Shown: positions 1,475 through 51,784 of the stretch, one piece after another
Layout of the letters: every line of letters begins with the position of its first letter
Numbering within the stretch: the first letter of the stretch is position 1
Sequence record: MK962751
DNA length: 51,854 nucleotides
DNA from: Shigella phage JK16
Strand: one strand, 5' to 3'
The notes under the pieces: model-generated
Told to the model about the DNA's origin: nothing
The model's input: only the letters and a program-made list of their open reading frames with translations
Database searches by the model: none
Made by a program: the position numbers and the translations under genes

Positions 1475-1517
1475 TAGCATTTTTTGTTAAAACAGTTTAT
1501 TGTAATGAGTCTATTAT
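1475..1517 (+). promoter_or_regulatory. motif-class promoter upstream of helicase (TAGCATTTTTTGTTAAAAC, then 18 nt, then TATTAT)
   Basis: Conserved motif copy plus -10-like hexamer at fixed spacing, 33 nt before helicase start. Confidence 0.45.
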
Positions 1518-1549
1518 ATACTCCAAATGGCATTTTTTAAAGGTTTAAG

Positions 1550-3547
1550 ATGATTCCAAATATCGAAAAACAAATATCAGCATTAGGCGAGGCAGTAATA
1601 AAAAGCATCCAAGAGCGATTCACGGTTGGCAATATAGTGCCTTATCCTTATCAGTGCGTTGCGTATGCAGAGATCGCAAAGCGCATGAAAAACTATGAGC
1701 ATCCTTTCTTTGTTAAGGCTTCTGTATCGGCTGGCAAAACATTGATGTTTGCGATGGTTGCGGCGCAATGCCGCAAAATGGGATTGAAAATGATGGTCCT
1801 TGCTCGCCAGGCTGAAATTGTTGATCAGGATTCGGAAGAGATCAGCAATCTTGGCGTGCCAAACTCAATCTATTGCGCCGGACTGAAAACAAAAAGCGCA
1901 TACTTTCCGATCGTAGTCGGTTCTGAGGGCACTGTAGTAAACGGATTGTTTAAGTCGTTAGGTGATTATGTTCCGCACGTTATCGGTATTGATGAATGTC
2001 ACCAGGTGGATTGGGAGGATCTCGCGGACGCGATAGAAAATAATGAATCTTACCAGCAGATGACCACTAAGAAGGATTTGCCAGTACTGATTGGAGAAGA
2101 ACAGCAATTTGATTCCAATGGCGATCCAATGTTCGGAACAGGGCGCACACAGTACACCGTAATAATCATGGAAATGATGCGCAGGTGTCGCGAGGCATAC
2201 GGGCACGAATTGCGAATATTCGGCATGACTGGATCTGAGTTTCGCGGCGTGGTTCCAATACTGGTTGAAGATAAGAACAAAAAGGGATTCTGGCGTGAGC
2301 AAGTAACTAACATAGACACAAACTACTTAATCAAATTCGGTTCGGTAGTGCCAACAAATTTCGGCGACGTCGGCGACCTGGGGTATGACCTTTCAGAGTT
2401 CGAGGCCAGTAGCGAGGACGGCGTTTCAGACTTTGACGCTAAAACATTGCGCAAGATGGAAGAAAAGATCCATCAAGACGCAACAATGACACAGAAAATC
2501 ATGGCTAAAGTCCATGAGATATGCAAAGACAGGAACGGAGTTTTAGTTACATGCGCAGGGGAAAGGCACTGCAAGGAGGCCGCCGCCGCACTGCCGCCAG
2601 GCGTTGAATACAGGATCATAACTGGCAAGACTGGAGATAATCAGCGTAAAGAGTGGCTGAGGGAGGCATACGAGGGAAAAGTAAAATACATCTTCCAGGT
2701 ACAGGCGCTTACCACTGGCGTTAACGTTCCGTTTTGGGATACTTCGGTAATACTGAGAAAGATAGGATCTCTAACATTGCTTATCCAGCTTTTGGGGCGC
2801 GGCATGCGACTGCTTAAGCAATGGCACATTGAACAGGGATTCAAGAAAAAAGATCATCTTGTATTGGATTTTGCAGGTACTATGGATGAGTTAGGTGATT
2901 TGTATTTCGATCCAATCCTTGAGCAAGCGCAATTCCAAAAGAGATTTACAAACGGGAAAGAGCCTAAGACTTGTCCGATATGTGGAACGCTAAACAGCTT
3001 TTACGCTCGCCGATGTATGCACGTAGACGATAACGGGAAGCGATGTGAGCATTTTTGGACTTACAGAATTTGCGAGGACCAGGTAGATCCGAGAACGAAA
3101 AAGATAATCAAGCGCGGTTGTGGAACAAAAAACGACGTAGTGGCGAGAGTATGCCGTTGTTGCGATATTTCTCTTGTCGATCCTAACGAGAAGTTAAGCG
3201 GTAAGCACTACACCAAAAACGATTGGTGCAACGTTAAATCTTTCCGCGTTGATATGACGAAAAACCAGAAAGGAATTATTTTTTGCTATGAGCTTGAGGC
3301 CAACGGCGATACGTTCAAGGCATACGAAAGATTTTTCCCTGAGTCAGAAAGCAACATTTGCCGGACGATATGGAGAAAAATAGCATTGCAGCACATACCG
3401 GATCGCAAGATTGCTGGTATGGTGGCGAGCTATAGAAATGCTCGTAAAATAATGTCATACGCTCATCACATCATGCCGCCTGTACGCGTAACGCATCGCA
3501 AAAACGGCAAAGGTGAGGATAACATTGCAAAACGGGAGTTTGTTTAA
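1550..3547 (+). CDS. ATP-dependent DNA helicase (superfamily 2) with C-terminal Cys-rich zinc-ribbon region
   Basis: Walker A SAGKT, DExH-like IDECHQ, C-terminal CPICG...C...C clusters. Confidence 0.7.
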   Translation: MIPNIEKQISALGEAVIKSIQERFTVGNIVPYPYQCVAYAEIAKRMKNYEHPFFVKASVSAGKTLMFAMVAAQCRKMGLKMMVLARQAEIVDQDSEEISNLGVPNSIYCAGLKTKSAYFPIVVGSEGTVVNGLFKSLGDYVPHVIGIDECHQVDWEDLADAIENNESYQQMTTKKDLPVLIGEEQQFDSNGDPMFGTGRTQYTVIIMEMMRRCREAYGHELRIFGMTGSEFRGVVPILVEDKNKKGFWREQVTNIDTNYLIKFGSVVPTNFGDVGDLGYDLSEFEASSEDGVSDFDAKTLRKMEEKIHQDATMTQKIMAKVHEICKDRNGVLVTCAGERHCKEAAAALPPGVEYRIITGKTGDNQRKEWLREAYEGKVKYIFQVQALTTGVNVPFWDTSVILRKIGSLTLLIQLLGRGMRLLKQWHIEQGFKKKDHLVLDFAGTMDELGDLYFDPILEQAQFQKRFTNGKEPKTCPICGTLNSFYARRCMHVDDNGKRCEHFWTYRICEDQVDPRTKKIIKRGCGTKNDVVARVCRCCDISLVDPNEKLSGKHYTKNDWCNVKSFRVDMTKNQKGIIFCYELEANGDTFKAYERFFPESESNICRTIWRKIALQHIPDRKIAGMVASYRNARKIMSYAHHIMPPVRVTHRKNGKGEDNIAKREFV

Positions 3548-3966
3548 TGGCTATAACTGATAAAGGAGATTATCTTGAGTTTTACGAAAGAGATCCAACC
3601 GACACGAGAAAGGAAGTTAATCACCAGATAGATAGCTTTCAGTGGTTGACTTATGCTCATCCTTATTTGCTAGCTTGGCATACGGTAAACGAGAATGAGA
3701 AGTCGAAAGTAACGGCGATGATTGATCAGCAGTCCGGCTTGGTTAAGGGGGTAAGCGATTTCATCATCCTGATTGGTTCAAACGGAAAATACCCCTTTGC
3801 AGCGATTGAGATCAAACGAGTGAATAAATCAGGCAAGGGGAAAGCATCACCAGTCAGCGATGAACAAAAGGCTTTTTTGCGTCGCGTTCGCAGCTTAGGA
3901 GGATTCGCTGCGGTCGCCTACGGATTTAATCAGTTTAAGTTAGCTATTGAATACATGCTTAAATAG
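3547..3966 (+). CDS. VRR-NUC domain nuclease
   Basis: GVSDFIIL...AAIEIKR...Q pattern typical of VRR-NUC (PD-(D/E)XK) fold; start overlaps helicase stop. Confidence 0.6.
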   Translation: MAITDKGDYLEFYERDPTDTRKEVNHQIDSFQWLTYAHPYLLAWHTVNENEKSKVTAMIDQQSGLVKGVSDFIILIGSNGKYPFAAIEIKRVNKSGKGKASPVSDEQKAFLRRVRSLGGFAAVAYGFNQFKLAIEYMLK

Positions 3967-4006
3967 CACTTTTTGTTAAAACTGGCGCGATGGATTGCGC
4001 CATAAT
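3964..4006 (+). promoter_or_regulatory. motif-class promoter (motif, hairpin GGCGC..GCGCC, CATAAT)
   Basis: Motif provides TAG stop of upstream gene; -10-like hexamer 18 nt downstream. Confidence 0.45.
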
Positions 4007-4046
4007 TCAATAACACGAGATGGCTTTTAATAGCGGAGAAATGAAA

Positions 4047-4772
4047 ATGGCTAAAGATATTTTAGATAAAGACACCCATGACGCATTTGTTAGCTTTGAG
4101 CAGTTGGAGAGAGAAACGTTTATAGGAAATGCTCTTGCAACTGGAGGCCATTACCAGGCAGTAAAGCCAAATCAATATTATAAGGTAAGCGGCAACCGAT
4201 ACGCTGGAAGCACTACGCCGGACGTTGTGCGCGATATGTGGAGCACACCTCAAGAGATCGTGGAGTGGATGGAATCAGAATTTGGCGAATACGATCTCGA
4301 CGCGGCAGCAAGCCAGGAAAACGCAGTTTGCGAGAAGTTCTATAGCAAGGAAACAAACTGCTTAAAGCGTTGGTGGGGTAGCAACAAGCACGTATGGCTT
4401 AACCCGCCGTACAGCAACCCAACTCCATTTATCAAGAAAGCAATTGAGCAAATGGAGCACAACAACCAAATTGATGTTTTGTTGCCATCCGACAACTCTA
4501 CAGCATGGTTTTATGAGGCGCAGAAAAACGCGGCTGAAATCATCTGGATCACTGGCGAGGTTTACGAAGAGGGGGGAGTGGAATATTCCCGCACCGGAAG
4601 AATCGCCTTTGTGTCTGGATTGACTGGCGAGCCTGTACAGGGCAACAATAAGGGAAGCGTGATTTTTGTCATGCGCAAACTTAAAGAAGGCGAGGAGCAG
4701 AAAACGCGATACGTTAAGATCAGCGATATTTGCCCCTCTGTAACCGAACGCCGCGCGCGCAAACGGAGCTAA
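4047..4772 (+). CDS. dam: DNA N6-adenine methyltransferase (phage Dam family)
   Basis: DLDAAAS ... WLNPPYS catalytic motif (NPPY); start chosen 8 nt after GGAG. Confidence 0.8.
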   Translation: MAKDILDKDTHDAFVSFEQLERETFIGNALATGGHYQAVKPNQYYKVSGNRYAGSTTPDVVRDMWSTPQEIVEWMESEFGEYDLDAAASQENAVCEKFYSKETNCLKRWWGSNKHVWLNPPYSNPTPFIKKAIEQMEHNNQIDVLLPSDNSTAWFYEAQKNAAEIIWITGEVYEEGGVEYSRTGRIAFVSGLTGEPVQGNNKGSVIFVMRKLKEGEEQKTRYVKISDICPSVTERRARKRS

Positions 4773-4776
4773 CACG

Positions 4777-5034
4777 ATGAAAAAAGAGAGAAGCGTTTAT
4801 TTAAATGAAACTGGCGAGTGGTTGTTATTTCGCGCTATGGTGTGCGATGCACTTGATAAAAACCCTAACGTGAAAAAGATGATTGATTGCGATCCGTGGG
4901 AATTTTCAAGCGCATTAGATATGAGCTTTGATGAGACAAGAAAACTCCCTCTTGAAAAATGGCACGAACAAATCAGAAATGATATGCAAGAGTTTGTAGA
5001 TTCGTGGAATTTTCAGAACGGAATGATCCACTAA
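4777..5034 (+). CDS. hypothetical protein
   Basis: ORF directly after dam, ends in conserved motif (TAA TAG). Confidence 0.45.
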   Translation: MKKERSVYLNETGEWLLFRAMVCDALDKNPNVKKMIDCDPWEFSSALDMSFDETRKLPLEKWHEQIRNDMQEFVDSWNFQNGMIH

Positions 5035-5077
5035 TAGCACTTTTTGTTAAAACGCCCGGCATTTTGTCGGGCATAAT
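5035..5077 (+). promoter_or_regulatory. motif-class promoter (motif, hairpin GCCCG..CGGGC, CATAAT)
   Basis: Same architecture as other copies. Confidence 0.45.
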
Positions 5078-5103
5078 TATTTCATCGAAACGAACGTGAG
5101 GAA

Positions 5104-5289
5104 ATGAAAATGGTAGTATATAGCAAGAAAGCATTTGACAAGGCGCAACAAGCCGCACGCGAGGCGGTAAAAGGTGGAACGAAAAACAATATGCAGCTTG
5201 ATTGGGGCGCTGCAATGATTCTACTTCGCGTTGCATATGGTCACTACCCATTAGAATTTGCGGAGGCATATTATAAGCATGAAGATTGA
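5104..5289 (+). CDS. hypothetical protein
   Basis: ORF with GAGGAA RBS. Confidence 0.4.
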   Translation: MKMVVYSKKAFDKAQQAAREAVKGGTKNNMQLDWGAAMILLRVAYGHYPLEFAEAYYKHED

Positions 5290-5521
5290 ACAAGGTAGAG
5301 AGGCGGTATGGAATCACGCTAAAGAATGCGGAATAGCCGACGATATAAAGAAGATCGCGCAATACTTTGATATTGCAGATGTGAGCATAATTAGCGGCGA
5401 TAAGATGACTTTCCTCAAGGAAAGGCCGCGAAAAATGGTAAGAGTTCCAGCAGTTCCAACAAAAATTGATTTCAAAGAGGCAATGGCTAAAATCCGAGAG
5501 CCTCGCAAATATTATAAATGA
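5279..5521 (+). CDS. hypothetical protein
   Basis: ORF overlapping upstream stop; start MKIEQG. Confidence 0.4.
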   Translation: MKIEQGREAVWNHAKECGIADDIKKIAQYFDIADVSIISGDKMTFLKERPRKMVRVPAVPTKIDFKEAMAKIREPRKYYK

Positions 5522-5615
5522 GGATAGTTATCATGTGGCGCTTGTTTGTTCTACCGTTACCCGTTATCATCGCTGTTACAGTTATGTACCATATAGTGAT
5601 GAGATAGGTGGCAGA

Positions 5616-6731: not shown

Positions 6732-6775
6732 TGAATTTTTATTTAAATCAATGACAAATTAAATCAAAAACTTGC

Positions 6776-6808
6776 AAGGGGGCGGCGTTTGTCGCCTCTT
6801 TTTTTTGT
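6776..6808 (+). terminator. rho-independent terminator after phosphoesterase gene
   Basis: GC-rich stem with G-U pairs followed by T8. Confidence 0.5.
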
Positions 6809-6876
6809 TTAATTTTTTACCATGTACGTTTATCATGCGGTCAATATATTGACTTTAATTAATATGGAGAATAAAA

Positions 6877-7092
6877 ATGAAAGATTTTATTAACGCAGCT
6901 ACCGCCGGATCTGGCGGTTCATCTATCGCAAGCGCCGCTACAGGGCAGTTAACCATTGCTATTGCCAGCTTTGTTTTAATGGCTGCATTCGGTGCATGGG
7001 GCGCTTACCTTCGCTGGCGTGATAGTAAAAAATTCCACGAGGCGATCGAAAAAGGTGATATTCAAAAAGCTATTGAAATCAGGGGCAAGTAA
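6877..7092 (+). CDS. holin
   Basis: 71 aa, single hydrophobic helix with charged C-terminus, immediately upstream of endolysin. Confidence 0.55.
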
Positions 7093-7975: not shown

Positions 7976-7992
7976 TGCCTCCTTTATTTTTA
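7963..7992 (+). terminator. rho-independent terminator after lysis cassette
   Basis: Stem AAGGAGGC/GCCTCCTT followed by TATTTTTAT; stem overlaps spanin stop. Confidence 0.6.
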
Positions 7993-8214: not shown

Positions 8215-8251
8215 GATTTTTCCTTTTTGGTTGGTTCGTTTCGATGAAACA

Positions 8252-8294
8252 AATATACCCGACACAATGTCGGGAGTTTTAACAAAAAATGCTA
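8252..8294 (-). promoter_or_regulatory. motif-class promoter, minus strand (TAGCATTTTTTGTTAAAAC, hairpin, TATATT)
   Basis: Motif variant plus -10-like hexamer 18 nt downstream on minus strand. Confidence 0.4.
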
Positions 8295-8486
8295 TTCCAT
8301 ACGCTTTACTGTAACCAATAACACACCATCATCATTGCATAAAACGTGTTCATTGGTGCTAAAAGCGCGCATATCTGAATAAAGCAGCGTAAGTAACGCA
8401 TGAATAAGATCCTCATGTGATATTGAATTTACGGCGCAGTGCTTCAAGATCTTGTCTATTAGCTTTTGCCTGGAACAATTCATCAT
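8292..8486 (-). CDS. hypothetical protein
   Basis: ORF whose stop lies in motif copy; overlaps neighbour, start uncertain. Confidence 0.3.
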   Translation of the reverse strand: MMNCSRQKLIDKILKHCAVNSISHEDLIHALLTLLYSDMRAFSTNEHVLCNDDGVLLVTVKRME

Positions 8487-10385: not shown

Positions 10386-10437
10386 TCGTTAGCTTCTCCT
10401 TTGTGGGCCGTAAATTTTAACGGCCCAATACTACCCC

Positions 10438-10456
10438 GTTTTGTCAAAAAGTGCTA
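10438..10456 (-). promoter_or_regulatory. motif copy (TTGACA variant) followed by hairpin GGGCCGT..ACGGCCC, upstream of DUF3987 gene
   Basis: Motif variant TAGCACTTTTTGACAAAAC; no clear -10 at standard spacing. Confidence 0.35.
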
Positions 10457-10729
10457 TTTGATCCGCTCTATTGCAACCAGAAGTCGATCAGGCTGGCGGT
10501 CGCTGTAGCATTCTCCTGTAATCCCATCCTTAAACGTAAAGTAAAGCGCCTTATGATATGAAAAACCAATCAGCCAACCTACCGCCGTTTTTTTGATGGG
10601 CCTGACTATATCGCCAGGCTTGAAGGTTTTTGTTGCTGAATGAGTCACCTTATAGCGATATTCAGCCTTGATCATAAGGCTTCTCGCTTCCGTGGTTTTT
10701 GTGGAATCCGTACTTTTTCCAAATGGCAT
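10454..10729 (-). CDS. hypothetical protein
   Basis: ORF ending in motif TAG; may start at internal Met. Confidence 0.35.
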   Translation of the reverse strand: MPFGKSTDSTKTTEARSLMIKAEYRYKVTHSATKTFKPGDIVRPIKKTAVGWLIGFSYHKALYFTFKDGITGECYSDRQPDRLLVAIERIK

Positions 10730-11374: not shown

Positions 11375-11404
11375 CGTTTATTTCTCCTTTCGTTTCGGTG
11401 AAGT

Positions 11405-11448
11405 GATTATGCCAGGTTTTTACACCTGGCTTTTAACAAAAAGTGCTA
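11405..11448 (-). promoter_or_regulatory. motif-class promoter, minus strand (motif, hairpin CCAGGTG..ACCTGG, ATAATC)
   Basis: -10-like hexamer 19 nt downstream of motif. Confidence 0.45.
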
Positions 11449-12156
11449 TTTTGAGTTTGACTCAAATACGGCGCGAGCAAATCCGCGCGGAGTGAGGGAG
11501 CGGATCATCTTTGTGCGTGATGAATTGCCGCCAGTTTTGGCCCAGCCTGGATTATCTTTGTCTTTCTCTTTCGGCAGGATTAAAGCGCGTGGAGGAATAA
11601 CAAAGCCGTTGCCAGTCCAGAGGCATGTTTTCTTAAAGTAGCGATCCCGCGCCGGAATAATATCAGGGAAGTCGGGATGTTTATCATCTTCCGGCAGATA
11701 GCCAGCGTAATCGCACGGATGGAACGTATAATCAGGCTTACGCCATAACGTTGACAACTTGCCAACCGGATTTTCGATCATGTAAGGAACACCGAAATAA
11801 TCAGCTATATCAGCCGCGATTCTGCAAGTGTCGGCGGCCTCATCCTGGAACGATGGATTCTCAAGGCGTTTTTTGGCCCAATGGCGAGATCCGCTATTTG
11901 CAAGGTCGGTGCAAGGAGGGAACGCCATAATAAAATCAGGATTGCCCCACTCATTATTGATTGCCTTAACATAAAAAGCATCATCAATCCAGACGTTAAC
12001 GTATTCGATATTCTCATGCTGTATGCGCACTGACTGGTAATCACCGTGATCGCCGCCGTCAGCATTAAAGCAAATGCACTTATATCCATTATCAGCCCAA
12101 TCTTTAACGGCTTTACCAGATCCATCAAATAGGGAGAATATTAAACCTTTATACAT
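11446..12156 (-). CDS. DNA cytosine-5 methyltransferase-like protein (short, no obvious target-recognition domain)
   Basis: Motif I-like FSLFDGSGK, motif IV-like FPPCTDLANSG (PCT rather than PCQ), motif VI-like MIENPVG, C-terminal RSLTPRGFARAVF. Confidence 0.5.
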   Translation of the reverse strand: MYKGLIFSLFDGSGKAVKDWADNGYKCICFNADGGDHGDYQSVRIQHENIEYVNVWIDDAFYVKAINNEWGNPDFIMAFPPCTDLANSGSRHWAKKRLENPSFQDEAADTCRIAADIADYFGVPYMIENPVGKLSTLWRKPDYTFHPCDYAGYLPEDDKHPDFPDIIPARDRYFKKTCLWTGNGFVIPPRALILPKEKDKDNPGWAKTGGNSSRTKMIRSLTPRGFARAVFESNSK

Positions 12157-12166
12157 CGTCATTACC

Positions 12167-12504: not shown

Positions 12505-12545
12505 TTCCACCTCATTTAAAAGGCGGCAAAACGCCGCCATATTAA

Positions 12546-13291: not shown

Positions 13292-13322
13292 CTTTAAATC
13301 CTCGTTTGTTGTCGATGCGCTT

Positions 13323-13365
13323 ACTATACCAATCAGCAGCGCATCGTTTTTAACAAAAAGTGCTA
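13323..13365 (-). promoter_or_regulatory. motif-class promoter, minus strand (motif, hairpin GATGCGCT..AGCGCATC containing TATAGT)
   Basis: Leader CAACAAACGAGGATTTAAAG ATG shared with the plus-strand copy at 19829. Confidence 0.45.
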
Positions 13366-13366
13366 T

Positions 13367-14592: not shown

Positions 14593-14627
14593 TTACTATC
14601 TCCTGAGCGGTTCGTTTCGATGTGTGT

Positions 14628-14670
14628 AATGTACCCGATCAGGCGGCCTGAGTTTTAACAAAAAGTGCTA
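14628..14670 (-). promoter_or_regulatory. motif-class promoter driving the minus-strand cluster (motif, 18 nt, TACATT)
   Basis: No gene upstream on minus strand, so this copy cannot be a terminator. Confidence 0.45.
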
Positions 14671-14694
14671 TTTGACGGTTAGCACCAGGATTGT

Positions 14695-16318: not shown

Positions 16319-16587
16319 AAAAGGCGTTAATCGGTGTTTTGGTGGCAATGGCATTCCTGACCGGATGTAAAGAAGATGGCGCGCATGTTGGCAATGTGCA
16401 GATGGCTAACCCTGGCGATGACTACAACGTAAGGGAGCTATTCACCGCTGACGGATGCACTGTTTACCGATTCTATGACGATCGCACTGTTTACTTCACC
16501 AACTGCAAGGGAACTACTAGCTGGGAAGTGTCGAAAAGCAATGGCAAAGGCACGAAGACAGAACATATGACCGTCGAGACAAAATAG
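16315..16587 (+). CDS. lipoprotein, possible superinfection-exclusion (Cor/Llp-like)
   Basis: Signal peptide with lipobox LTGC; 90 aa with three Cys. Confidence 0.5.
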   Translation: MKKALIGVLVAMAFLTGCKEDGAHVGNVQMANPGDDYNVRELFTADGCTVYRFYDDRTVYFTNCKGTTSWEVSKSNGKGTKTEHMTVETK

Positions 16588-16627
16588 CACTTTTTGTTAA
16601 AACTCAAAAACGATAACCAGGCATAAT
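16585..16627 (+). promoter_or_regulatory. motif-class promoter (motif, 18 nt, CATAAT)
   Basis: Motif supplies TAG stop of lipoprotein gene. Confidence 0.45.
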
Positions 16628-16832
16628 ACACACATAGACGGGCGGCAAGGATTGCTGCGGGAGAGGAGCGACGCAGGGGCTTGATCGAAGTGTCAGGATT
16701 CCCAACCGTGAGGCCAGAACTATCACACTCGCCACCAGGCAGAACGCTAGATAGGTCACTGAACTGAGGCTACCGACGAAGTGAAGCCCGTCACCAAAGA
16801 TTAAACGGTTATTTATGTGAAAGGGGTTAATG

Positions 16833-17012: not shown

Positions 17013-17027
17013 TTAGGAGAAATCACC

Positions 17028-18228: not shown

Positions 18229-18381
18229 ATGGCTACCTGGATTTTGCTGATTCTTATGATTGATGGCGGCGTTGACCATATCGAAATGAATAGCCAGCAA
18301 TCTTGCATTGAGGCACGAGAGCAGATCAAGAACAACAACAGTTTTTATGCGTACACTCACACGCTATGTATTAAGAAATAG
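18229..18381 (+). CDS. small membrane protein (50 aa), paralog of 19670 gene
   Basis: Found by manual translation; GAGGTGAGAG RBS; N-terminal hydrophobic helix, conserved C..EAR.Q and C; stop inside motif. Confidence 0.35.
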   Translation: MATWILLILMIDGGVDHIEMNSQQSCIEAREQIKNNNSFYAYTHTLCIKK

Positions 18382-18420
18382 CACTTTTTGTTAAAACTCA
18401 AATGTGGGGCCAGGTATAAT
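18379..18420 (+). promoter_or_regulatory. motif-class promoter (motif, hairpin GGCCA..TGGCC containing TATAAT)
   Basis: -10 hexamer 17 nt after motif. Confidence 0.45.
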
Positions 18421-18450
18421 GGCCTCACTTTCAACGAAGGAGATAAAACG

Positions 18451-19673: not shown

Positions 19674-19831
19674 CTTGGTTGCTTTTAATCTTTGTCACAA
19701 GTTACAACTCCGCAGCTATTGAGTCGCAGGAGTTCCACGGCGAATCAAGATGCCAGGAAGCGCGAAAGCAAGTTATTCTCCACATGTCAGATAGTGGGAA
19801 GGATGTAACAGCGTTATGCGTTCGTAAATAG
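19670..19831 (+). CDS. small membrane protein (53 aa), paralog of 18229 gene
   Basis: Found by manual translation; start overlaps HAD stop (ATGA); hydrophobic N-terminus; stop inside motif. Confidence 0.35.
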   Translation: MTWLLLIFVTSYNSAAIESQEFHGESRCQEARKQVILHMSDSGKDVTALCVRK

Positions 19832-19872
19832 CACTTTTTGCAAAAAACAGATCATCGGGCTTGCTGTATAGT
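19829..19872 (+). promoter_or_regulatory. motif-class promoter (motif variant TTGCAAAAAAC, hairpin GGGCTT..AAGCCC containing TATAGT)
   Basis: 19 nt gap to TATAGT; leader CAACAACAAACGAGGATTAAATC ATG. Confidence 0.45.
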
Positions 19873-19903
19873 AAGCCCATCAACAACAAACGAGGATTAA
19901 ATC

Positions 19904-20560: not shown

Positions 20561-21151
20561 ATGAAACGAGACATTATCATCCTTAATGGGCCGCCAGGTT
20601 GCGGGAAGGACACTATTGCAGCTTACCTAACGGGCCATCGTTACCCAGCGGTTAATGCGTCATTCAAACAGCCGATGTTCGATATTGCGTTTTCCATGCT
20701 TGGCACGACTCGATATGATGAGTTTATTGACCTGTACAACGACCGAGAGCAAAAAGAAAAGCCTCAAGTTATCTTAGGCGGCAAGTCACCTCGACAATTC
20801 ATGATCTGGATTAGCGAGGATGTAATGAAGCCAGTCTTTGGGGAGCAGTATTTCGGGCGTCGAATGGTTGAAGAGATTAACGAGATGTACCGAGATTTGG
20901 CGGTTGTGATCAGTGATGGCGGATTCCACGAAGAAATCAAGCCGCTTGTTAAGGCAGGGCATGAAGTGCATATTTGCCGATTGCATCGCGACGGCTTCAC
21001 GTTTGCTGGCGATTCGAGAGACTACATTGACCTGAGCGGTTATCACTATCGAATCCATCACTATGACTTCCACTTGCAGGACGGCAAGCCGGAACTGGCT
21101 GTAAACGAGATCGTCAATGCTGTCAAATGGAAGCACACACAGATTAAATAG
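20561..21151 (+). CDS. deoxynucleoside monophosphate kinase (T4 gp1-like)
   Basis: Walker A LNGPPGCGKDT and downstream GGKSP motif resembling T4 gp1 dNMP kinase. Confidence 0.55.
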   Translation: MKRDIIILNGPPGCGKDTIAAYLTGHRYPAVNASFKQPMFDIAFSMLGTTRYDEFIDLYNDREQKEKPQVILGGKSPRQFMIWISEDVMKPVFGEQYFGRRMVEEINEMYRDLAVVISDGGFHEEIKPLVKAGHEVHICRLHRDGFTFAGDSRDYIDLSGYHYRIHHYDFHLQDGKPELAVNEIVNAVKWKHTQIK

Positions 21152-21191
21152 CACGAATTGCTAAACGCGGGGCGCAATGCCTCGCTATAAT
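21149..21191 (+). promoter_or_regulatory. motif-class promoter variant (TAGCACGAATTGCTAAACG, 18 nt, TATAAT)
   Basis: Variant motif supplies TAG stop; consensus -10. Confidence 0.45.
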
Positions 21192-21221
21192 GCAAACACC
21201 AATCAACGAGAGGAAACAATC

Positions 21222-22172: not shown

Positions 22173-22463
22173 ATGGCAAACAAAACTTACCGCAAACTAC
22201 TGGTTAACGCTTTTGAAAACATCGCGCAGTGTAACAAGTGGAACGACTCTAAACACTCGCCAATCACAATGAAGCGCGCCGGATTCAAAAATACTCGTTC
22301 ATGGGCGCGAGCTTTCGCAGCTTGCTATATGCCGGATGGCGGACTAGGGGTGATGAACGATTTTTTGATCAACATGATAGAGGAAGCGGCGCGAGAGGAT
22401 CGACCGCTGACACAGCGAGATTTTGACGGCTTCGCGCGCGATGAGCTTTACTATCTGAGTTAA
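22173..22463 (+). CDS. hypothetical protein
   Basis: 96 aa; AAGGGGA RBS; followed by motif. Confidence 0.45.
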   Translation: MANKTYRKLLVNAFENIAQCNKWNDSKHSPITMKRAGFKNTRSWARAFAACYMPDGGLGVMNDFLINMIEEAAREDRPLTQRDFDGFARDELYYLS

Positions 22464-22506
22464 TAGCACTTTTTGTTAAAACTTCCGCAAGGGCATTTGG
22501 TAAAGT
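22464..22506 (+). promoter_or_regulatory. motif-class promoter (motif, hairpin AAGGGCA..TGCCCTT, weak -10 TAAAGT)
   Basis: Motif after TAA stop; weak -10-like hexamer at 18 nt. Confidence 0.4.
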
Positions 22507-22538
22507 GCCCTTATTGAAGCGAAACAGAGGAAAGCGCA

Positions 22539-25086: not shown

Positions 25087-26654
25087 TGATCATATGGGAA
25101 GATTTGACGGCGGCGCAAAAGCGAGCCATTAAAGAAATCAGTGAGCATTCATTCGAAAAGATGATCAGAATCTGGTTTCAGTTATTGCAGGGGCAAAAAT
25201 TCCAGAGCAACTGGCATTTTAGCTTATTGTGCAGTGAGGTAGAGAAGATCATCAATGGAGAGTCGCAGAATGTGATTTTCAACATTACGCCAGGTAGCGG
25301 TAAGACTGAGATTTTCTCGATCCACATGTCACCCTACGCGTCATTGAAAAGTCGGAAGGTGAGAAACCTTAACCTTTCGTTTAGTGATGGACTTGTCCAG
25401 CAAAACAGCAACAGGATAAAGGAGATTATCGGTTCTCCTGAGTGGCAAGAGCTATGGCCAGGAAAACTGGCAAAGGCGAGCGCAAAAGATCTCATAGTTA
25501 CGGATGGCGGCAAGGTTAAATTGCAAGTTAACTCACGTTCTATTGGCGGACAGGTAACAGGTTTGCGTGGCGGCTATATGGACGATGGTTTTACTGGTAT
25601 GCTGGTTCTGGACGATCCAGACAAGCCGGATGATATGCTTTCTAAGGTCAAGCGTGAGGCGATCCACATGCGGTTAAAAAACACAGTGCGATCGCGTCGA
25701 ATGAAAGACACTACGCCGATTGTTATGGTGCAACAGCGACTACACGTTAATGATTCCACCTGGTTCATGCTTAATGGCGGTATGGGCGGTATTGAGTTTA
25801 AAGTTGTGAGCATTCCTGCGCTGGTTACGAAAGAATACCGCGAAACGCTTCCTGATTGGTTGAAGCCTGAATTTGATCGTGATGTGTTGTCAAGTAAGCC
25901 AGTGATGATAGATGGCGTTGCTCATTATTCATTTTGGCCTGCGAAGGAAAGCGCGGAGGAATTGCTTGCATTGCGCAATGCAGATCCTTATACGTTCGCC
26001 AGTCAGTACCAACAGCAACCCATCGCGCTTGGCGGCAACGTGTTTAAAACAGAGTGGTTCCAGTATTACGGCAGCGGCGAAAAATGCGCACTTCCTAAAC
26101 CGGATCGCTTTGAATACACATTTATTACTGGTGATACCGCGCAGAAGGCCGGAGAGCTTAACGACTATTCAGTTTTTTGTTATTGGGGGATGTATAAGAA
26201 TCGCGTTTACTTCATTGATGGCATTCGCGGAAAGTGGGAAGCGCCGGATCTTGAATTAAATTTTATTGCCTTCGTTAATCAGTGCTGGAAGCGCAATAAG
26301 GAGTGTGGCAGCTTGCGACGTATCCACATTGAGGATAAGGCCAGCGGCACGGGTTTGATTCAGGGGGCCAAAAAGAAGATCCCGATTGATATAAATCCCG
26401 TTCAGCGAAGCAATGACAAGGTAACGCGAGCAATGGACGCCGCGCCAGTAATGAGGGCCGGACGTGTGGCACTGCCAGAAAGTCATCCCATGTTACCTGA
26501 GATACTGGCAGAGGTTGCAGCGTTCACTTTTGACGATTCTCATCCCCATGATGATATTGTCGATAATATAGTTGATGCTGTTAACGTCGAAATGAACTTG
26601 GCTGATGATCCGGTAGCAAGGATGAAAAAGCTGGCTGGTCTACGCAATAAATAG
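25086..26654 (+). CDS. terminase large subunit
   Basis: ATPase P-loop-like ITPGSGKTE, acidic Walker B-like MLVLDDPD, C-terminal nuclease-like acidic residues; 522 aa. Confidence 0.8.
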   Translation: MIIWEDLTAAQKRAIKEISEHSFEKMIRIWFQLLQGQKFQSNWHFSLLCSEVEKIINGESQNVIFNITPGSGKTEIFSIHMSPYASLKSRKVRNLNLSFSDGLVQQNSNRIKEIIGSPEWQELWPGKLAKASAKDLIVTDGGKVKLQVNSRSIGGQVTGLRGGYMDDGFTGMLVLDDPDKPDDMLSKVKREAIHMRLKNTVRSRRMKDTTPIVMVQQRLHVNDSTWFMLNGGMGGIEFKVVSIPALVTKEYRETLPDWLKPEFDRDVLSSKPVMIDGVAHYSFWPAKESAEELLALRNADPYTFASQYQQQPIALGGNVFKTEWFQYYGSGEKCALPKPDRFEYTFITGDTAQKAGELNDYSVFCYWGMYKNRVYFIDGIRGKWEAPDLELNFIAFVNQCWKRNKECGSLRRIHIEDKASGTGLIQGAKKKIPIDINPVQRSNDKVTRAMDAAPVMRAGRVALPESHPMLPEILAEVAAFTFDDSHPHDDIVDNIVDAVNVEMNLADDPVARMKKLAGLRNK

Positions 26655-26680
26655 CACTAATTGCTAAAAAGTTATATAAT
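26652..26680 (+). promoter_or_regulatory. motif variant (TAGCACTAATTGCTAAAAA) with TATAAT only 4 nt downstream
   Basis: Variant copy supplying TAG stop of terL; spacing atypical. Confidence 0.3.
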
Positions 26681-26683
26681 CAA

Positions 26684-26708
26684 GGCTGGATTTTTCCAGC
26701 CTTTTTTA
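26684..26708 (+). terminator. rho-independent terminator or attenuator between terL and portal
   Basis: Stem GGCTGGA/TCCAGCC followed by T6. Confidence 0.55.
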
Positions 26709-26724
26709 TTATGGAGATTTGACG

Positions 26725-30467: not shown

Positions 30468-31250
30468 ATGGCTAAAGATTATTCATCTGTTATGGGTCTT
30501 TCTTGCCCTGGTTGTTTGGTTGACTCTACTCGCTACAATATTGATGGAACTGGCGTTTGTGGTTCTGAGTCGATTATTGCTGGTAAGGTTGTTTTCTTCA
30601 AAGAGAGAGTAGAAGGTTATAGCATATTTGTTGATCATAAAGAGCATGATGCGGTTGTTGCTGGCGTCGCGCTAAGGAGCAACATAACAACGACAGTTAA
30701 CGAGGAAGACGGGTATTCAGACTACAAGGAAGGAGACGCCATCAACATTTTGACAAGAGGTGTTGTATGGTGTGTAACTCAAACAATTGAATCTCCTCCT
30801 GAACATGGCGATCTTGTTTATGTTAACAATGATGGCTTTGTAGCAAAGAGTGACGGGGATGAAATCGTCGATGGCTGGATTTTTACTGGTGACTTCTACA
30901 AGTTTGATGAAACAATAAACATAGTAGGAGTAAGGATAACGCCGCTTCATCATAGAAAATACCTTCTTACTGGTGCGATAATTGAGGCTGAAAATGGCTA
31001 CATAGAGGGAACAGAGACGATTAATAACGTTCAATTAAAGGTAACGGTTGTTCCTACTTGGGCTGATGACAAAACGGGTCAGTGGACAATTACAAACGAG
31101 CAAGATCCAAAGGTTGCCAGCGTTAGCCGTACAGGTCTTGTTGTTCCTACTGGTGTAGGAGGCAGAGTTAACGTCAACTGGACTGCTAATGATGGTTCTG
31201 GAGTTGCTGACCAGTTTGATATTGTATTTAAGAAAACCGCTGGCGAATAA
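30468..31250 (+). CDS. head decoration protein with C-terminal Ig-like domain
   Basis: N-terminal paralogy to 29908 gene; C-terminal Ig-like segment (VTVVPTWADDKTGQWTI...VNVNWTANDGSG). Confidence 0.5.
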   Translation: MAKDYSSVMGLSCPGCLVDSTRYNIDGTGVCGSESIIAGKVVFFKERVEGYSIFVDHKEHDAVVAGVALRSNITTTVNEEDGYSDYKEGDAINILTRGVVWCVTQTIESPPEHGDLVYVNNDGFVAKSDGDEIVDGWIFTGDFYKFDETINIVGVRITPLHHRKYLLTGAIIEAENGYIEGTETINNVQLKVTVVPTWADDKTGQWTITNEQDPKVASVSRTGLVVPTGVGGRVNVNWTANDGSGVADQFDIVFKKTAGE

Positions 31251-31274
31251 CTGATAGCATAAAAAAACATTGCA

Positions 31275-31293
31275 CGTTTAACAAAAAGTGCTA
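31275..31293 (-). promoter_or_regulatory. motif copy in antisense orientation within the structural module
   Basis: Reverse-complement motif between decoration and capsid genes; no -10 at standard spacing. Confidence 0.3.
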
Positions 31294-31300
31294 TCATCTA

Positions 31301-31327
31301 GGCCGTTACATTTAACGGCCTTTTTTA
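31301..31327 (+). terminator. rho-independent terminator or attenuator immediately upstream of major capsid gene
   Basis: Stem GGCCGTTA/TAACGGCC followed by T6, then GGAGG RBS. Confidence 0.5.
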
Positions 31328-34991: not shown

Positions 34992-35029
34992 TTCCTGTAA
35001 AATCAATCTATCAAATAAATTAATTCCAC

Positions 35030-35048
35030 TTTTAACAAAAAGTGCTAT
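35030..35048 (-). promoter_or_regulatory. motif copy in antisense orientation upstream of G chaperone gene
   Basis: Reverse-complement motif abutting the AAGGAG RBS. Confidence 0.3.
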
Positions 35049-45758: not shown

Positions 45759-45783
45759 TACTCCTTAGTTGTTGTTGGCTGCA

Positions 45784-45825
45784 ACTATACACGATCTTGG
45801 GCATCGCGTTTAGCAAAAAGTGCTA
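45784..45825 (-). promoter_or_regulatory. motif-class promoter, minus strand (TAGCACTTTTTGCTAAACG, 17 nt, TATAGT)
   Basis: No minus-strand gene upstream; drives lipoprotein operon. Confidence 0.45.
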
Positions 45826-45889
45826 TTTGTTATTTTTTGTTTTCCGGTGTTATCGAATTTAAGACGGCGTAAATTTAGCGCAAAATTTA

Positions 45890-46190
45890 GACAACATAAG
45901 ATCAATAAACAATCAATAAAATAGATATATACATATAAAATCAATAGTTTATTTATTTATGTATGTATATTTGTTTTTTCTTGTTATCTGCGTTTCTTGT
46001 GGTTTTGGTTGTTTGTGGTGATTTTTCTTTCTGAGTATCTGTATGTGCCATCATTCATGTGTATGTATATAATCCGGCGTATCTGAGAGAACAGGGGAAC
46101 AAGAAAAATAACACACATTAATCATTAACTTATGAGTCAAATCTGTTTTCTTGCCATCTGAGAACGTTTAGAAAACAGAAAAAACAAAAC
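45890..46190. repeat. AT-rich non-coding region paralogous to 14925-15250
   Basis: Shared blocks TTATTTATTTATGTATGTAT, TTGTTATCT, TTGTGG repeats, GGGAACAAGAAAAA, ACACATTAA. Confidence 0.55.
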
Positions 46191-46195
46191 AGCTA

Positions 46196-46223
46196 TTGAC
46201 TAAATCAACCAAATGGCTACAAT
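46196..46223 (+). promoter_or_regulatory. sigma70-type promoter for recombination operon (TTGACT, 16 nt, TACAAT)
   Basis: Near-consensus hexamers 30 nt upstream of exonuclease start. Confidence 0.55.
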
Positions 46224-49793: not shown

Positions 49794-51748
49794 TATACAA
49801 TTTCCCCCAATTGATGATCTGTTAGTGCCTTGTGCCATATACGGAAGTTTCTAACGTGCCCGAAAAGATGACGTTCGCCCGTAGTTGTTTGTCCGCCAAT
49901 CCTTATAGTAGCCGTTGATACTATATATCTCCATTCCGTTTTTGTTTCGCTTGATATTCTGGCATTACTTACACAACAAGTATTGTAATCACTCTTTACT
50001 CTCATTCCTATGATCATCTTTTTTAGTTTCGCATTCTCGTTAACCCTTCTGTTTGATTTACCTATATCGCAATAAGGGAATCCATCACTATCGCCCTTGG
50101 CAGATCCGAAAGCAAGAATAATTTCCGCACCAGATTGATGACCTCCAGAACCAAAAACACGAGGCGCAGCACTTGGCGTCATACTCCAGTTTTTATGAGC
50201 TTCCACAAGCACTGTAAACGGCAAATTGTAAAGGTTGTTTTTTATTGGCAATGTAACCATATCGCTTGCCCTTGTTGTCGGACTTTCATTAGTTATAATG
50301 AATGATGAAGCGCAAGATCCAACCTCTACTTGAGGAGTTGTTAAATCCATAAAGCTATTTTCATCAAAAACTTCTCCTTGTTTATTAACGACCTGTATTA
50401 CCCCCCTAATGGAAGTTGATTCATCAGTAACTTTGTAAACTATTTCTGCAAAAATCCATTCCCCGTCTATGGTAGCGTTCTTTAGCACTATGTTTTTTGC
50501 GTCAACTCCAGAAGTTGCCACCCCTAAGTTATCGCAATCAATAATAGCAGAAGCAACAGAAGATAAAGGATCTCCCTTGTCAAATCTTGCTGCAAATCTT
50601 ACATTTTTCCCCTTAGCCCTAAAAGATATTGTAACTCCATCACCCTTTACAACTGCAATATTATTTGTAGTAAGTCCAGCTATAATAGTGTAAGAGCCTA
50701 CGCCACCTAAATATTTCCCTGGTTTAAATGTTGCATACTTAAACCCCCTTTCATCAGTCTTAGTTTCACCTCTTTCTAATCCTGTATTTGGATTCCATGA
50801 TTCAGGCTTATTTGAATTTACAAAATAGTTTGTTCTCTGCCCTTCAATCAAAAGACCATCCTTTTCAAATCTAGGTTCATCAATAGCAGCATCAGTAAGC
50901 AACCCAGACTTATTAATGTAAGTAGCGGTTGATGCACGTTTAAACTTAACAATCTTGTCACCTGGCATCGTGATCTCATCATCACCTATGACAATCTTTT
51001 TGTATGACGGCGAGAATCCGGTGATCATATCCAGGGAATCATTAAATGGTATCCACACGTCAGGTAGAGGCTGCAATAAATCTTTGTAAGGTTCTGCGGC
51101 CTGTTTTGCGTATTCCTCCGCTTGATCTCGCGCACTTTCAGCGCCTGCCTTTGCGGTGTTCGCAGCATCACGCGCAGTTTCAGCGCCTTTTCTTGCAGTT
51201 TCAGCGCCAGTCTTTGCAGTGTTTGCAGCGTCGCGCGCGGATTCAGCGGCAGCCTTTGCAGTGTCAGCACCTTTCTTGCTATTCTCTGCATTTGTTGCGC
51301 TTGTCTTTGCGTTATTCTCGCTAGTTTTAGCTGCCTTCTGGCTTGCTGCGGCTGCGTCAGCATTTGTCTTTACGTCTTCCTGGATCTTCTGTAGCTTATC
51401 CCAATCAAAATCCTTGATGATCTCAATAAATCCAGCAAGCTCCGACTCCTTTCCCTGGTAATAACGCAACGTTTCCGCTACGTCTTGCGCAAGACCGTCA
51501 ACCGTTAACGAGTCATGAAGCAAGATCAGGTAATTTGTCTTCTGTACTACCGCGCCGCCAGTAGTAATTGCGCGAATGCTTGTATCGCTAATCACTTCTG
51601 TAATCACAGCAGCTTGCAAAGGTTGAGCAAGAAAGAAAATAGTTGCGCCTGGGCGAATCAAGGTTAATTGCTCACGCCATTTTGTACCGTAACCAGTTAC
51701 ATAACCTTGCGCGTCCATAGACGCTTGGCCTTGTCTGTAAATCGCCAT
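49793..51748 (-). CDS. tail fibre protein with Ala-rich repeat region and C-terminal lectin-like domain
   Basis: N-terminal fibre-anchor-like segment, 10-11 residue Ala-rich repeats (ARDAANTAK.GAE.AR), C-terminal GHVRNFRIWHKALTDHQLGEI resembling LamG/ConA-like lectin folds; AGGAGG RBS. Confidence 0.7.
   Translation of the reverse strand: MAIYRQGQASMDAQGYVTGYGTKWREQLTLIRPGATIFFLAQPLQAAVITEVISDTSIRAITTGGAVVQKTNYLILLHDSLTVDGLAQDVAETLRYYQGKESELAGFIEIIKDFDWDKLQKIQEDVKTNADAAAASQKAAKTSENNAKTSATNAENSKKGADTAKAAAESARDAANTAKTGAETARKGAETARDAANTAKAGAESARDQAEEYAKQAAEPYKDLLQPLPDVWIPFNDSLDMITGFSPSYKKIVIGDDEITMPGDKIVKFKRASTATYINKSGLLTDAAIDEPRFEKDGLLIEGQRTNYFVNSNKPESWNPNTGLERGETKTDERGFKYATFKPGKYLGGVGSYTIIAGLTTNNIAVVKGDGVTISFRAKGKNVRFAARFDKGDPLSSVASAIIDCDNLGVATSGVDAKNIVLKNATIDGEWIFAEIVYKVTDESTSIRGVIQVVNKQGEVFDENSFMDLTTPQVEVGSCASSFIITNESPTTRASDMVTLPIKNNLYNLPFTVLVEAHKNWSMTPSAAPRVFGSGGHQSGAEIILAFGSAKGDSDGFPYCDIGKSNRRVNENAKLKKMIIGMRVKSDYNTCCVSNARISSETKTEWRYIVSTATIRIGGQTTTGERHLFGHVRNFRIWHKALTDHQLGEIV
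51100..51350 (-). repeat. in-frame tandem DNA repeats (~33 bp units) inside tail fibre gene
   Basis: Repeated GCAGTTTCAGCGCC / CTTTGCAGTG units; all six frames open here in the ORF track. Confidence 0.7.
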
Positions 51749-51765
51749 TTGTAAAATCCTCCTAA

Positions 51766-51784
51766 ATAGCACTTTTTGCTAATG
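51766..51784 (+). promoter_or_regulatory. motif copy (TAGCACTTTTTGCTAATGA) at window end
   Basis: Plus-orientation copy with no plus-strand gene downstream in the window. Confidence 0.3.

Follow-up and report, generated by a model that had tools for sequence, protein, structure and literature searches.

A conserved intergenic element at fixed distance from a -10 hexamer as the putative upstream part of terminator-promoter cassettes in Shigella phage JK16 and other T1-like phages

The genome of Shigella phage JK16 (sequence record MK962751) carries 18 intergenic copies of a short element, ATAGCAC-N3-TTG-N-TAAA, within the stretch of 51,854 nucleotides analysed here and referred to throughout as the window. 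The feature is real, family-wide and functionally constrained. We consider it probable that each copy forms the upstream part of a composite terminator-promoter cassette, and that this putative cassette is the main early and middle promoter type of T1-like phages. In the proposed mechanism, host RNA polymerase carrying sigma70 would bind the -10 hexamer, and the element, standing in for the -35, would be contacted by a trans-acting factor responsible for recruiting or positioning polymerase. The dyad of the element would lie near -41/-42, an arrangement known from galP1 and other class II activator-dependent extended -10 promoters, and the most likely factor would be a Cro-like regulator encoded beside the primase gene, perhaps acting through its invariant N-terminal motif. 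In read-through transcripts a hairpin next to the element, formed in the sense RNA, may terminate or attenuate transcription or protect the 3' end, so that each cassette would reset transcription between gene blocks. Where copies lie over a core promoter or ribosome binding site (RBS), as at the regulator, portal, capsid, chaperone and tail-fibre genes, expression may be repressed or out-competed by the same binding.

All 18 copies proposed by the first-pass annotation, a reading made from the sequence letters, were recovered with the pattern above, including the 'GAA' variant ATAGCACGAATTGCTAAACG at 21148-21167, and their coordinates proved correct to 1-3 nt; a fuller form of the pattern is ATAGCAC-N3-TTG-N-TAAAA, and the element as delimited here is a 20-mer. 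The consensus given by that annotation, allowing up to three mismatches, has 14 matches in the window and none in 100 dinucleotide shuffles. An extra, degenerate 19th copy, ACAGCACGAATAGCTAATGA, lies at 983-1002 on the minus strand. A -10-like hexamer had been reported 17-19 nt past the element in 13 copies; the spacing holds and the count rises to 14 in the window, with 68-84 nt separating the start of the element from the start codon in 13 of these 14. The TAG or TAA of the element is often the stop codon of the upstream gene, as had been observed: comparison of open reading frame (ORF) ends with element coordinates places the stop there in 12 of the 18 copies, through the element's own TAG in nine and through a TAA overlapping its first A in three. 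The description of 16 copies as oriented with the flanking genes requires correction, since only 15 face a co-oriented downstream gene. Downstream of the copy at 51766 (+) there is only the terminator of the primase operon, and the upstream end of this copy adjoins the RBS of the tail-fibre gene, which is on the minus strand. The copies at 31275 and 35030, described as antisense, are inverted and overlap a late-gene promoter or RBS, an overlap that the first-pass annotation missed. The element also shuts two reading frames on its own through the invariant TAG at positions 1-3 and the TAA at 14-16, and the third is often closed by a TAA at -3 to -1 of the element; any gene inserted upstream would therefore terminate at the cassette.

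Conservation was assessed in a family sample of 36 sequences, made up of the window, T1, Rtp and TLS together with 32 loci from IMG/VR anchored on the regulator gene, which yielded 307 copies in 232 distinct contexts. A free pattern scan of IMG/VR returned mostly single chance matches and fragments of T1-like contigs. The bases G3, C4 and A5 of the element are invariant among the 232 distinct copies and G12 is present in 231, position 13 is C or T, and the central triplet reads TTT, GAA, TAA or AAA. Absence from relatives had been named beforehand as a finding that would speak against a promoter class. The element is instead present in T1, Rtp, TLS, Vibrio phage Vc1 and the contigs with the most divergent regulators, so that it spans Tunavirinae, Braunvirinae and Tempevirinae as well as the most divergent relatives.

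The geometry around the element is equally constrained. The spacer between element and hexamer measures 18 nt in 144 copies, 17 nt in 41 and 19 nt in seven (83% of 232), and a hexamer scoring at least 4.5 occurs at 17-19 nt in 190 of the 232 copies against a background of 2.3%; hexamers at this standard spacing include CATAAT, TATAAT, TATAGT, TATTAT and TATATT. A logo of 192 copies aligned on the hexamer, in which A-11 and T-7 are high by selection, has T-17 in 124, G-14 in 146 (76%), C-1 in 138 and A+1 in 141 copies, with CA at -1/+1 in 59%. The dinucleotide TG at -15/-14 is enriched rather than universal (63/192 copies, 33%, vs 6.7% background). Past the predicted CA start, located 7 nt beyond the hexamer, an A/C-rich leader (CATCGAAACGAAC and similar) precedes an RBS at about +14 to +18. 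Relative to this start the element spans -50 to -31. Its dyad, TAGCA-N5-TG(C/T)TA, is imperfect, and the centre falls at -42 for spacers of 18 nt and at -41 for those of 17 nt. The sequence from -36 to -31 is TAAAAC and the element's TTGnTA stands 22 bp from the hexamer; therefore no -35 is available at a usable distance (16-18 bp). This geometry is strong sequence evidence for promoters that use sigma70 -10 recognition. The earlier promoter interpretation is upheld to the extent that comparison of sequences can do so, by the fixed -10 spacing, by T-17, G-14, C-1 and A+1, and by conservation. That the promoters need an activator or a modified RNA polymerase, as was also suggested, is a prediction.

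The displaced TTGnTA raises the question of whether host RNA polymerase might read the element directly, as an UP-like or displaced -35-like sequence, using sigma70 region 4 and/or the C-terminal domains of alpha and needing no additional factor. Under such a model the invariance of the element would mirror that of RNA polymerase across hosts: phages of Escherichia, Klebsiella, Vibrio, Pantoea and Erwinia carry an identical element, whereas the recognition helix of the only DNA-binding protein that these phages share varies. The element is also A/T-rich, its TTGnTA becomes a perfect TTGACA in the 10438 copy, and unmodified polymerase must transcribe the early genes. We nonetheless regard direct read-out as unlikely. 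Sigma70 tolerates spacers of 16-19 bp, and the 22 bp between TTGnTA and the -10 lie beyond this range. The combination of invariant G3, C4, A5, C6 and G12 with a free central triplet, which can be GAA, is the opposite of minor-groove A-tract reading by alpha, the A-tract sits about 9 bp nearer the -10 than the UP proximal subsite, and natural -35 or UP elements contain far less information than the roughly 24 bits of this element. The likeness to UP elements was remarked upon by the authors of a TLS re-annotation (PMC11447400). Several specific assignments were tried and rejected. TTGnTA fails as a -35, as besides its 22-bp distance from the hexamer nothing is conserved 17 bp downstream of it. 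The UP consensus attributed to Estrem et al. in 1998, AAAWWTWTTTTnnAAAA, is said to place its A/T tract at about -40 to -60 and to be read in the minor groove. As an UP element, the sequence here has G/C at invariant positions (G3, C4, C6, G12), a central triplet that can be GAA and T- and A-tracts about 9 bp too near the -10. A sigma54 promoter (TGGCAC-N5-TTGC, with its GG at -24, its GC at -12 and a start some 12 nt further on) was rejected because the element, TAGCAC-N3-TTG(C/T), lacks the first G, is 2 nt short and has a sigma70 -10 18 nt further on. The host Lrp site, YAGHAWATTWTDCTR, matches at up to 13 of 15 positions and is a weak lead only, as the invariant C6 and the common GAA centre disagree with it.

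The second selected feature is a GC-rich hairpin interleaved with the promoter core. The region from -31 to +10 folds with a mean of -12.2 kcal/mol compared with -5.1 in shuffles, and 81% of copies reach -8 or lower. The hairpin occurs in two registers, one within the spacer (arms -31 to -24 and -18 to -12) and one enclosing the -10 (arms -21 to -13 and -6 to +5). The arms vary between copies and match within each, such that own arms pair at -12.3 kcal/mol and chimeric arms at -6.4 (p=6.5e-26); covarying pairs include GCCGGAT/ATCCGGC, GCCAGGC/GTCTGGC and GCCCCGC/GTGGGGC. A gapless alignment of the spacer hairpins gave no consensus pairs with RNAalifold, owing to a 1-nt difference between registers. 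Folding is more stable in the sense than in the antisense strand (-12.2 vs -10.0), and the sense strand holds 19 GNRA/UNCG tetraloops against one. Strong hairpins accompany elements at which a co-directional ORF ends (-13.1, n=163), and the remaining copies have weak ones (-7.1, n=29; p=1.8e-8), and the unit-initial window copies 1474, 14652 and 45807 all have weak hairpins. As strength is confined to sites where an upstream gene ends, the hairpin seems to serve transcripts arriving from upstream rather than the promoter, and it probably terminates, attenuates or 3'-protects them. The first-pass annotation missed it as a selected feature with this role.

How far the hairpins resemble conventional terminators differs between copies. 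The T1 GenBank record marks four of them as rho-independent terminators, while just two cassette hairpins of the window pass a terminator scan (5054-5072 and 8274-8258). Where the hairpin encloses the -10, the sequence that comes next is AUCGAAAC rather than U residues. The copy between the regulator and primase genes has a full U-tract and a -10 in the hairpin loop in the window, in T1 (35976, minus strand) and in TLS (35221, minus strand), and the T1 record lists the hairpin at 35976 (-) as a terminator. In the window this degenerate copy, ACAGCACGAATAGCTAATGA, lies at the end of the regulator gene (941..1002, minus strand), with the element at 1002-983, a hairpin at 977-950 whose loop holds TGaTAATAT, a U-tract at 949-941, then the primase RBS and the primase ATG at 930; it is a true terminator with a promoter -10 in the hairpin loop.

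A further alternative is a primary role outside transcription initiation, with the element acting as an RNA signal for 3'-end formation or processing of the upstream mRNA, or as a recombination linker, that is, a homology patch comparable to the promoter-early stem-loop (PeSL) cassettes of T4-like phages. The element would be transcribed as the 3' end of the upstream gene, whose stop lies inside it in 12 of 18 copies; it closes two frames alone, and a hairpin biased to the sense strand comes after it. When the window is compared with relatives, 8 of 65 homology breakpoints lie within cassettes versus 1.7 expected at random, a comparison not controlled for intergenic position, and a PeSL precedent exists (PMC2839356). 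Such a primary role leaves the fixed -10 distance, the CA start and the orientation towards downstream genes unexplained, and unit-initial copies with no upstream gene keep the element and lose the hairpin. Position 13 varies freely, covariation gives no support to an RNA stem inside the element, intergenic breakpoints would be expected anyway, and no Rfam match was obtained. We judge this primary role to be highly improbable, although a secondary role in cassette shuffling is plausible. An RNA stem inside the element (UAGCA/UGCUA) was specifically rejected, position 13 being free without compensation. Across the window no Rfam family was matched and no tRNA was found.

If the cassettes are promoters that depend on a trans-acting factor, the best candidate reader is the family-wide Cro-like regulator (986..1462, minus strand; 158 amino acids), a homologue of T1 gp23 and Rtp52. 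It was found in 848 phage records and is the sole DNA-binding protein common to the family. Residues 40-150 are modelled confidently, and the helix-turn-helix (HTH) at residues 53-92 matches Xfaso 1 and N15 Cro proteins. The most conserved part is the N-terminal motif DKRTINGNNGTRRGKDKKPRK, DKRxxNGNNGT(R/K)RGxD, at residues 12-35 (1359-1430, minus strand), which is predicted to be disordered (pLDDT <60) yet is better conserved than the HTH. In the window, T1, Rtp and TLS a copy of the element occupies an operator position by the regulator's own gene. A profile search of 1.84 billion representatives gave only about 15 clusters of full-length regulators, and the two more divergent clusters whose contigs were retrieved have T1-like gene contexts. 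In the divergent regulators, including that of Vc1, the N-terminal motif is kept and helix 3 is unrelated, and their contigs carry ATAGCAC..TTGCTAAA. The element could be read by the N-terminal motif itself or by a component of the host, or the motif could make contact with a host target that is invariant. The first-pass annotation had put the HTH protein forward as an activator, a proposal that gains from its family-wide presence and from the copy in operator position and loses from the lack of conservation in its recognition helix. Its other suggestion, the first early protein (15854-16318, DUF7174), is a poor candidate, being undetectable in T1 or Rtp; this protein and an AbrB-like protein were both rejected as readers, as neither is conserved in T1, Rtp or TLS. 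A distant HTH relative in Klebsiella phage VLCpiS13b was also set aside, since that phage is unrelated and lacks the element.

A subset of copies is placed differently, over late-gene promoters and RBSs. Upstream of the major capsid gene (31244..31325, minus strand; capsid start 31341) the element at 31294-31275 is inverted and has an antisense TGcTATCAG at standard spacing on its own strand. On the plus strand its reverse complement supplies the spacer and extended -10 of a forward sigma70-type capsid promoter, TTGCAC(31270-31275)-16-TGcTATCAT(31292-31297), which is followed at once by a hairpin, a U-tract and the RBS (31270-31340). The same layout is found in T1 (TTGACG-16-TGcTATTAT, 15040-15145) and TLS (TTGAAC-16-TGcTATATT, 14990-15075), and thus in three genera; the Rtp capsid site is an ordinary TTGCGT-16-TATAAT without the element. 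The second inverted copy lies between the major tail gene terminator and the tape-measure chaperone gene (34998..35048, minus strand; element 35048-35029; chaperone start 35063). It has an antisense TGaTAGATT at standard spacing, aimed into the bidirectional terminator, and its reverse complement abuts the chaperone RBS, AAGGAG; the orthologous site is inverted in T1 and forward in Rtp (16303). In the gap between terL and the portal gene an atypical copy (26651..26712, plus strand; element 26651-26670) has no hexamer at standard spacing. A TATAAT (26675-26680) begins 4 nt past the element and is followed by a hairpin, U-tract and RBS, so that the element covers about -36 to -17 of this TATAAT; T1 and TLS have the same TATAAT, hairpin and U-tract at the portal site without the element. 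The atypical copy ATAGCACTTTTTGCTAATGA (51766..51785, plus strand), a 'TAATGA' variant conserved in relatives, also has no -10 at standard spacing, and the primase-operon terminator of the minus strand comes next. At three genes, those for the regulator, the chaperone and the tail fibre, the RBS is immediately adjacent to the element's reverse complement. Lying over or beside core promoters and RBSs, these copies would place any element-binding factor to repress or compete there.

The late genes terS (24488-24520), portal (26675-26712) and capsid (31292-31330) have one common layout, in which a -10 or extended -10 stands beside a terminator-like GC hairpin with U-tract, followed by an RBS. Their transcripts would start at or just past the terminator hairpin.

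These overlapping copies bear on a model in which the promoters are constitutive extended -10 promoters and the element is the operator, or 'stoperator', of a phage repressor such as the Cro-like regulator, serving early and middle shut-off and later a block to read-through. The fold of the regulator is of Cro type and Cro proteins are repressors; copies occupy operator or roadblock positions at the capsid spacer and -10, at portal -36 to -17 and at three RBSs; G-14 or TG could allow activity independent of a factor; and stoperators were proposed by the TLS authors (PMC11447400). A repressor site, on the other hand, needs no -10 phase-locked at 18 +/-1 bp, as found in 83% of copies, and need not occupy the exact place of the missing -35. 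Lying at -50 to -31, it would only marginally overlap the core promoter, and the variability of the recognition helix speaks against the Cro-like protein as its reader. Repression as the general function seems rather unlikely to us. We are similarly doubtful of one specific form of the activator model, which remains speculative: that T1-like phages express most early and middle genes by a polymerase-redirection system of their own, in which the Cro-like protein reads or bridges the -50 to -31 box via its disordered DKRxxNGNNGTRRG segment, not its variable HTH, and hands sigma70 polymerase to extended -10 promoters lacking a -35, with the same box repressing late promoters and RBSs. If such redirection were to occur, titration of the factor driven by replication could time the early-to-late switch and contribute to host shut-off.

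Several points weigh against a factor-dependent terminator-promoter cassette. The recognition helix of the regulator differs completely between lineages (SQQVVNQW, SHAALHEW, RHRVARWVE, DVCRLTNAY), and as the element is invariant, ordinary HTH read-out is hard to reconcile with this variability. Regulator and element are both family-wide and their co-occurrence is therefore uninformative. Some of the promoters, having a good -10 together with G-14 or TG, may need no factor, and if all early promoters needed a phage protein, the first minutes of infection would hinge on a few canonical promoters. The sense preference of the hairpin is modest, with G.U pairs at 11.4% in the sense and 8.7% in the antisense strand. 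Copies are related by descent, so that P-values overstate their independence, and the searched literature contained no transcript 5' ends, RNA-seq or binding data for any T1-like phage.

Fourteen modules of the window have a correctly spaced hexamer, three of them on the plus strand in the left part. The module of the helicase gene (1474..1524) comprises the element at 1474-1493, a -10 TATTAT at 1512-1517, a predicted +1 at about 1524 and a start codon at 1550. It has a weak hairpin (-1.9 kcal/mol) and no co-directional gene upstream; a divergent minus-strand promoter, TTTAAA-17-TATAAT (1541-1513), is present at the same site, and the divergent regulator gene has its RBS directly against the element's reverse complement. 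The Dam methyltransferase module (3963..4013; element 3963-3982, -10 CATAAT 4001-4006, +1 about 4013, start 4047) has a spacer hairpin, tggcgcg..cgcgcca, of -12.1 kcal/mol, and the TAG of its element is the stop of the ORF at 3547-3966. In the third (5034..5084) the element at 5034-5053 is followed by a hairpin at 5054-5072 scored terminator-like by the terminator scan (GCCCGGCATTTTGTCGGGC ATAATTATTT), a -10 CATAAT at 5072-5077, a CA +1 at 5084 and a start at 5110.

The early arm on the minus strand holds five modules, the first of which in the direction of transcription (14621..14671; element 14671-14652, -10 TACATT 14633-14628, CA +1 14621, start 14592) has no upstream gene and a weak hairpin. 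The next (13316..13366; element 13366-13347, TGgTATAGT with its hexamer at 13328-13323, CA +1 13316, start 13291) has its extended -10 enclosed by a hairpin of -17.0 kcal/mol. At 11399..11449 (element 11449-11430, TGg and CATAAT 11411-11406, CA +1 11399, start 11374) the spacer hairpin is ccaggt..acctgg. The module of the DUF3987 helicase gene (10407..10457; element 10457-10438, -10 TAAAAT 10419-10414, start 10385) carries the element variant with a perfect TTGACA, and its -10 lies within the loop of a hairpin of -15.6 kcal/mol. The last (8245..8295) has the element at 8295-8276, a hairpin at 8274-8258 that the scan scored terminator-like, a -10 TATATT at 8257-8252, a CA +1 at 8245 and a start at 8214.

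Five further modules lie on the plus strand of the right early arm. That at 16584..16634 (element 16584-16603, -10 CATAAT 16622-16627, CA +1 16634) has its next gene at 16833. The -10 is enclosed by a hairpin both at 18378..18427 (element 18378-18397, TATAAT 18415-18420, CA +1 18427, start 18451) and at 19828..19879 (element variant ATAGCACTTTTTGCAAAAAA at 19828-19847, TATAGT 19867-19872, CA +1 19879, start 19904). The 'GAA' variant ATAGCACGAATTGCTAAACG heads the module at 21148..21198 (element 21148-21167, -10 TATAAT 21186-21191, CA +1 21198, start 21222). The module at 22463..22513 (element 22463-22482, TGgTAAAGT with its hexamer at 22501-22506, start 22539) has a hairpin, aagggca/tgccctt, that encloses the -10 and whose arms covary with those of the orthologous copies in T1 and TLS. 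A final module on the minus strand (45777..45826; element 45826-45807, -10 TATAGT 45789-45784, start 45758) heads a lipoprotein / cor-like cluster. In the wider family a conserved copy also lies within the start of a coding sequence (ATG GCA GAC GAT ATA GCA CGA ATT GCT AAA ...) with a TATTAT 21 nt downstream, at 15252 in locus L145, 9011 in L143 and 40307 in L122 (T1), together with their orthologues; this copy might act as an internal promoter or be a coincidence of the coding sequence.

The window aligns at 98-99% with the Warwickvirus phages ityhuna, swan01, tonn and JLBYU19 (Drexlerviridae, Tempevirinae) and its first base is the first base of the JLBYU19 record; it is therefore a complete, circularly permuted T1-like genome. 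Replication and lysis genes occupy 1-8000, the minus-strand early arm 8000-14700, the plus-strand early arm 15800-24500 and the structural genes 24500-44600, with recombination and tail-fibre genes at the right end. Canonical promoters had been placed before the first early gene and the recombination operon, and an extended -10 before terS. A promoter scan agrees, with TTGACA-17-GATAAT at 15211 and 15796 for the early gene, and the other two are TTGACT-17-TACAAT ahead of recE and TGgTATAAT ahead of terS. A scan of 1-20000 for consensus sigma70 promoters returned 38 sites versus 39.5 in shuffles, with no excess.

The early promoter is doubled by a perfect 585-bp tandem duplication within 14867-16038, 14867-15451 being identical to 15452-16036. 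The duplication also takes in the 5' portion of the first early gene and may be genuine, or may have arisen during assembly at a terminally redundant or pac region. The spacer and -10 of the early promoter hold an element-like sequence, ATAGCATTATTGATAA, with a centre 1 nt shorter (15223-15238 and 15808-15823). This may be chance, as the early promoters of T1, TLS and Rtp are without ATAGCATTATTGATAA. Upstream of the canonical promoters, the large intergenic regions 14700-15200 and 45830-46200 are AT-rich, carry 'tatgtatgtata'-type short repeats and have the 14-mer GGGAACAAGAAAAA in common. After the module at 16584, about 195 nt (16634-16832) contain no ORF. A 52-nt core within them (about 16660-16711) recurs at about 92% identity in more than 100 phages of other groups, mostly in unannotated DNA; carriers include the Dhillonvirus-like phages JL1, EK99P-1 and SO-1 and the 41-kb Salmonella phages PT1 and Lumpael. 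No tRNA was found there, no Rfam family matched 16600-16850, and folding was no better than in shuffles. The core is a candidate shared non-coding element or an unannotated small gene.

T1 is one of the seven classical T phages, and its transcription programme and host shut-off are still unexplained. The family-wide phase-locking of the element to a -10 and start site turns an open question into a testable model, with some 15 defined promoters in each genome, predicted start sites, a defined box as a target for mutation and a single clear candidate protein. For annotation, T1-like genomes are at present credited with few promoters, and many annotated 'terminators' would be terminator-promoter composites. 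The cassettes may also serve as compact, portable engineering parts for coliphages that are widely used and widely feared.

The repeat itself has already been published, which the first-pass annotation missed. The 2024 re-annotation of TLS describes 18 intergenic 21-nt direct repeats, aaATAGCACnnnTTGnTAAAA, oriented with transcription about 76 nt upstream of start codons and present also in T1, Rtp and Rogue1 (PMC11447400). Its authors counted only three sigma70-like promoters, suggested a stoperator, enhancer site or UP element, and listed the function of the repeat among the open questions for T1-like phages. It was the only paper matched when the literature was searched by element sequence. 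The TLS repeat is the same element as that described here, with TTT, GAA and AAA sub-classes in both. The TLS study made no link to a -10 hexamer, start site or hairpin, whereas our analysis does; the proposed promoter geometry, the predicted hairpin logic and the late-gene copies are new.

The closest parallel in organisation is provided by the PeSL cassettes of the T4-like phages RB49 and phi1 (PMC2839356, PMC4122927). Both systems pair a repeated promoter, here a putative one, with a stem-loop, and both sit in plastic regions, where they separate small early genes. Termination or attenuation of upstream transcription is the role proposed for either stem-loop, and homology breakpoints are associated with both, in the present case by comparison with random expectation. 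PeSLs differ in having a full sigma70 -35/-10 promoter with an AT-rich upstream region, where the cassettes here have an invariant 20-bp element in place of the -35, and their stem-loop lies upstream of the promoter rather than in the spacer or around the -10. Promoter and terminator activities as well as mini-circles were demonstrated experimentally for PeSLs, while the cassettes described here are predicted from sequence.

In promoter architecture the element resembles class II extended -10 promoters, of which galP1, with CRP at -41.5, is an example. Common to both are the lack of a functional -35, a TGn or G-14 extended -10, partial in the cassettes, and an imperfect dyad of about 20 bp at -41/-42 abutting polymerase. 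Unlike galP1, the element is no CRP/FNR site, its conservation is strongly asymmetric with ATAGCAC invariant, and some 15-20 such promoters are present per phage genome. Middle promoters of phage T4 combine a MotA box centred at -30, 11-13 bp from the -10, with sigma appropriation by AsiA. They share with the element promoters a sigma70 -10, often extended, and a phage-specific box that replaces the -35, and the right half of the element, TTGCTAAA, resembles the MotA-box core TGCTT. Unlike the MotA box, the element has 22 bp between its TGCTA, which ends at -35, and the -10. None of 20 window proteins scanned against Pfam or PHROGs belongs to the MotA/AsiA family, although no search was aimed at these proteins. 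Finally, the stoperators of mycobacteriophage L5 are likewise many asymmetric copies of one short intergenic site oriented with transcription. They are 13-bp sites bound by the prophage repressor within the transcription units of a temperate phage and bear no fixed relation to a -10, whereas the element described here belongs to a virulent phage family and keeps a fixed spacing to its -10 hexamer.

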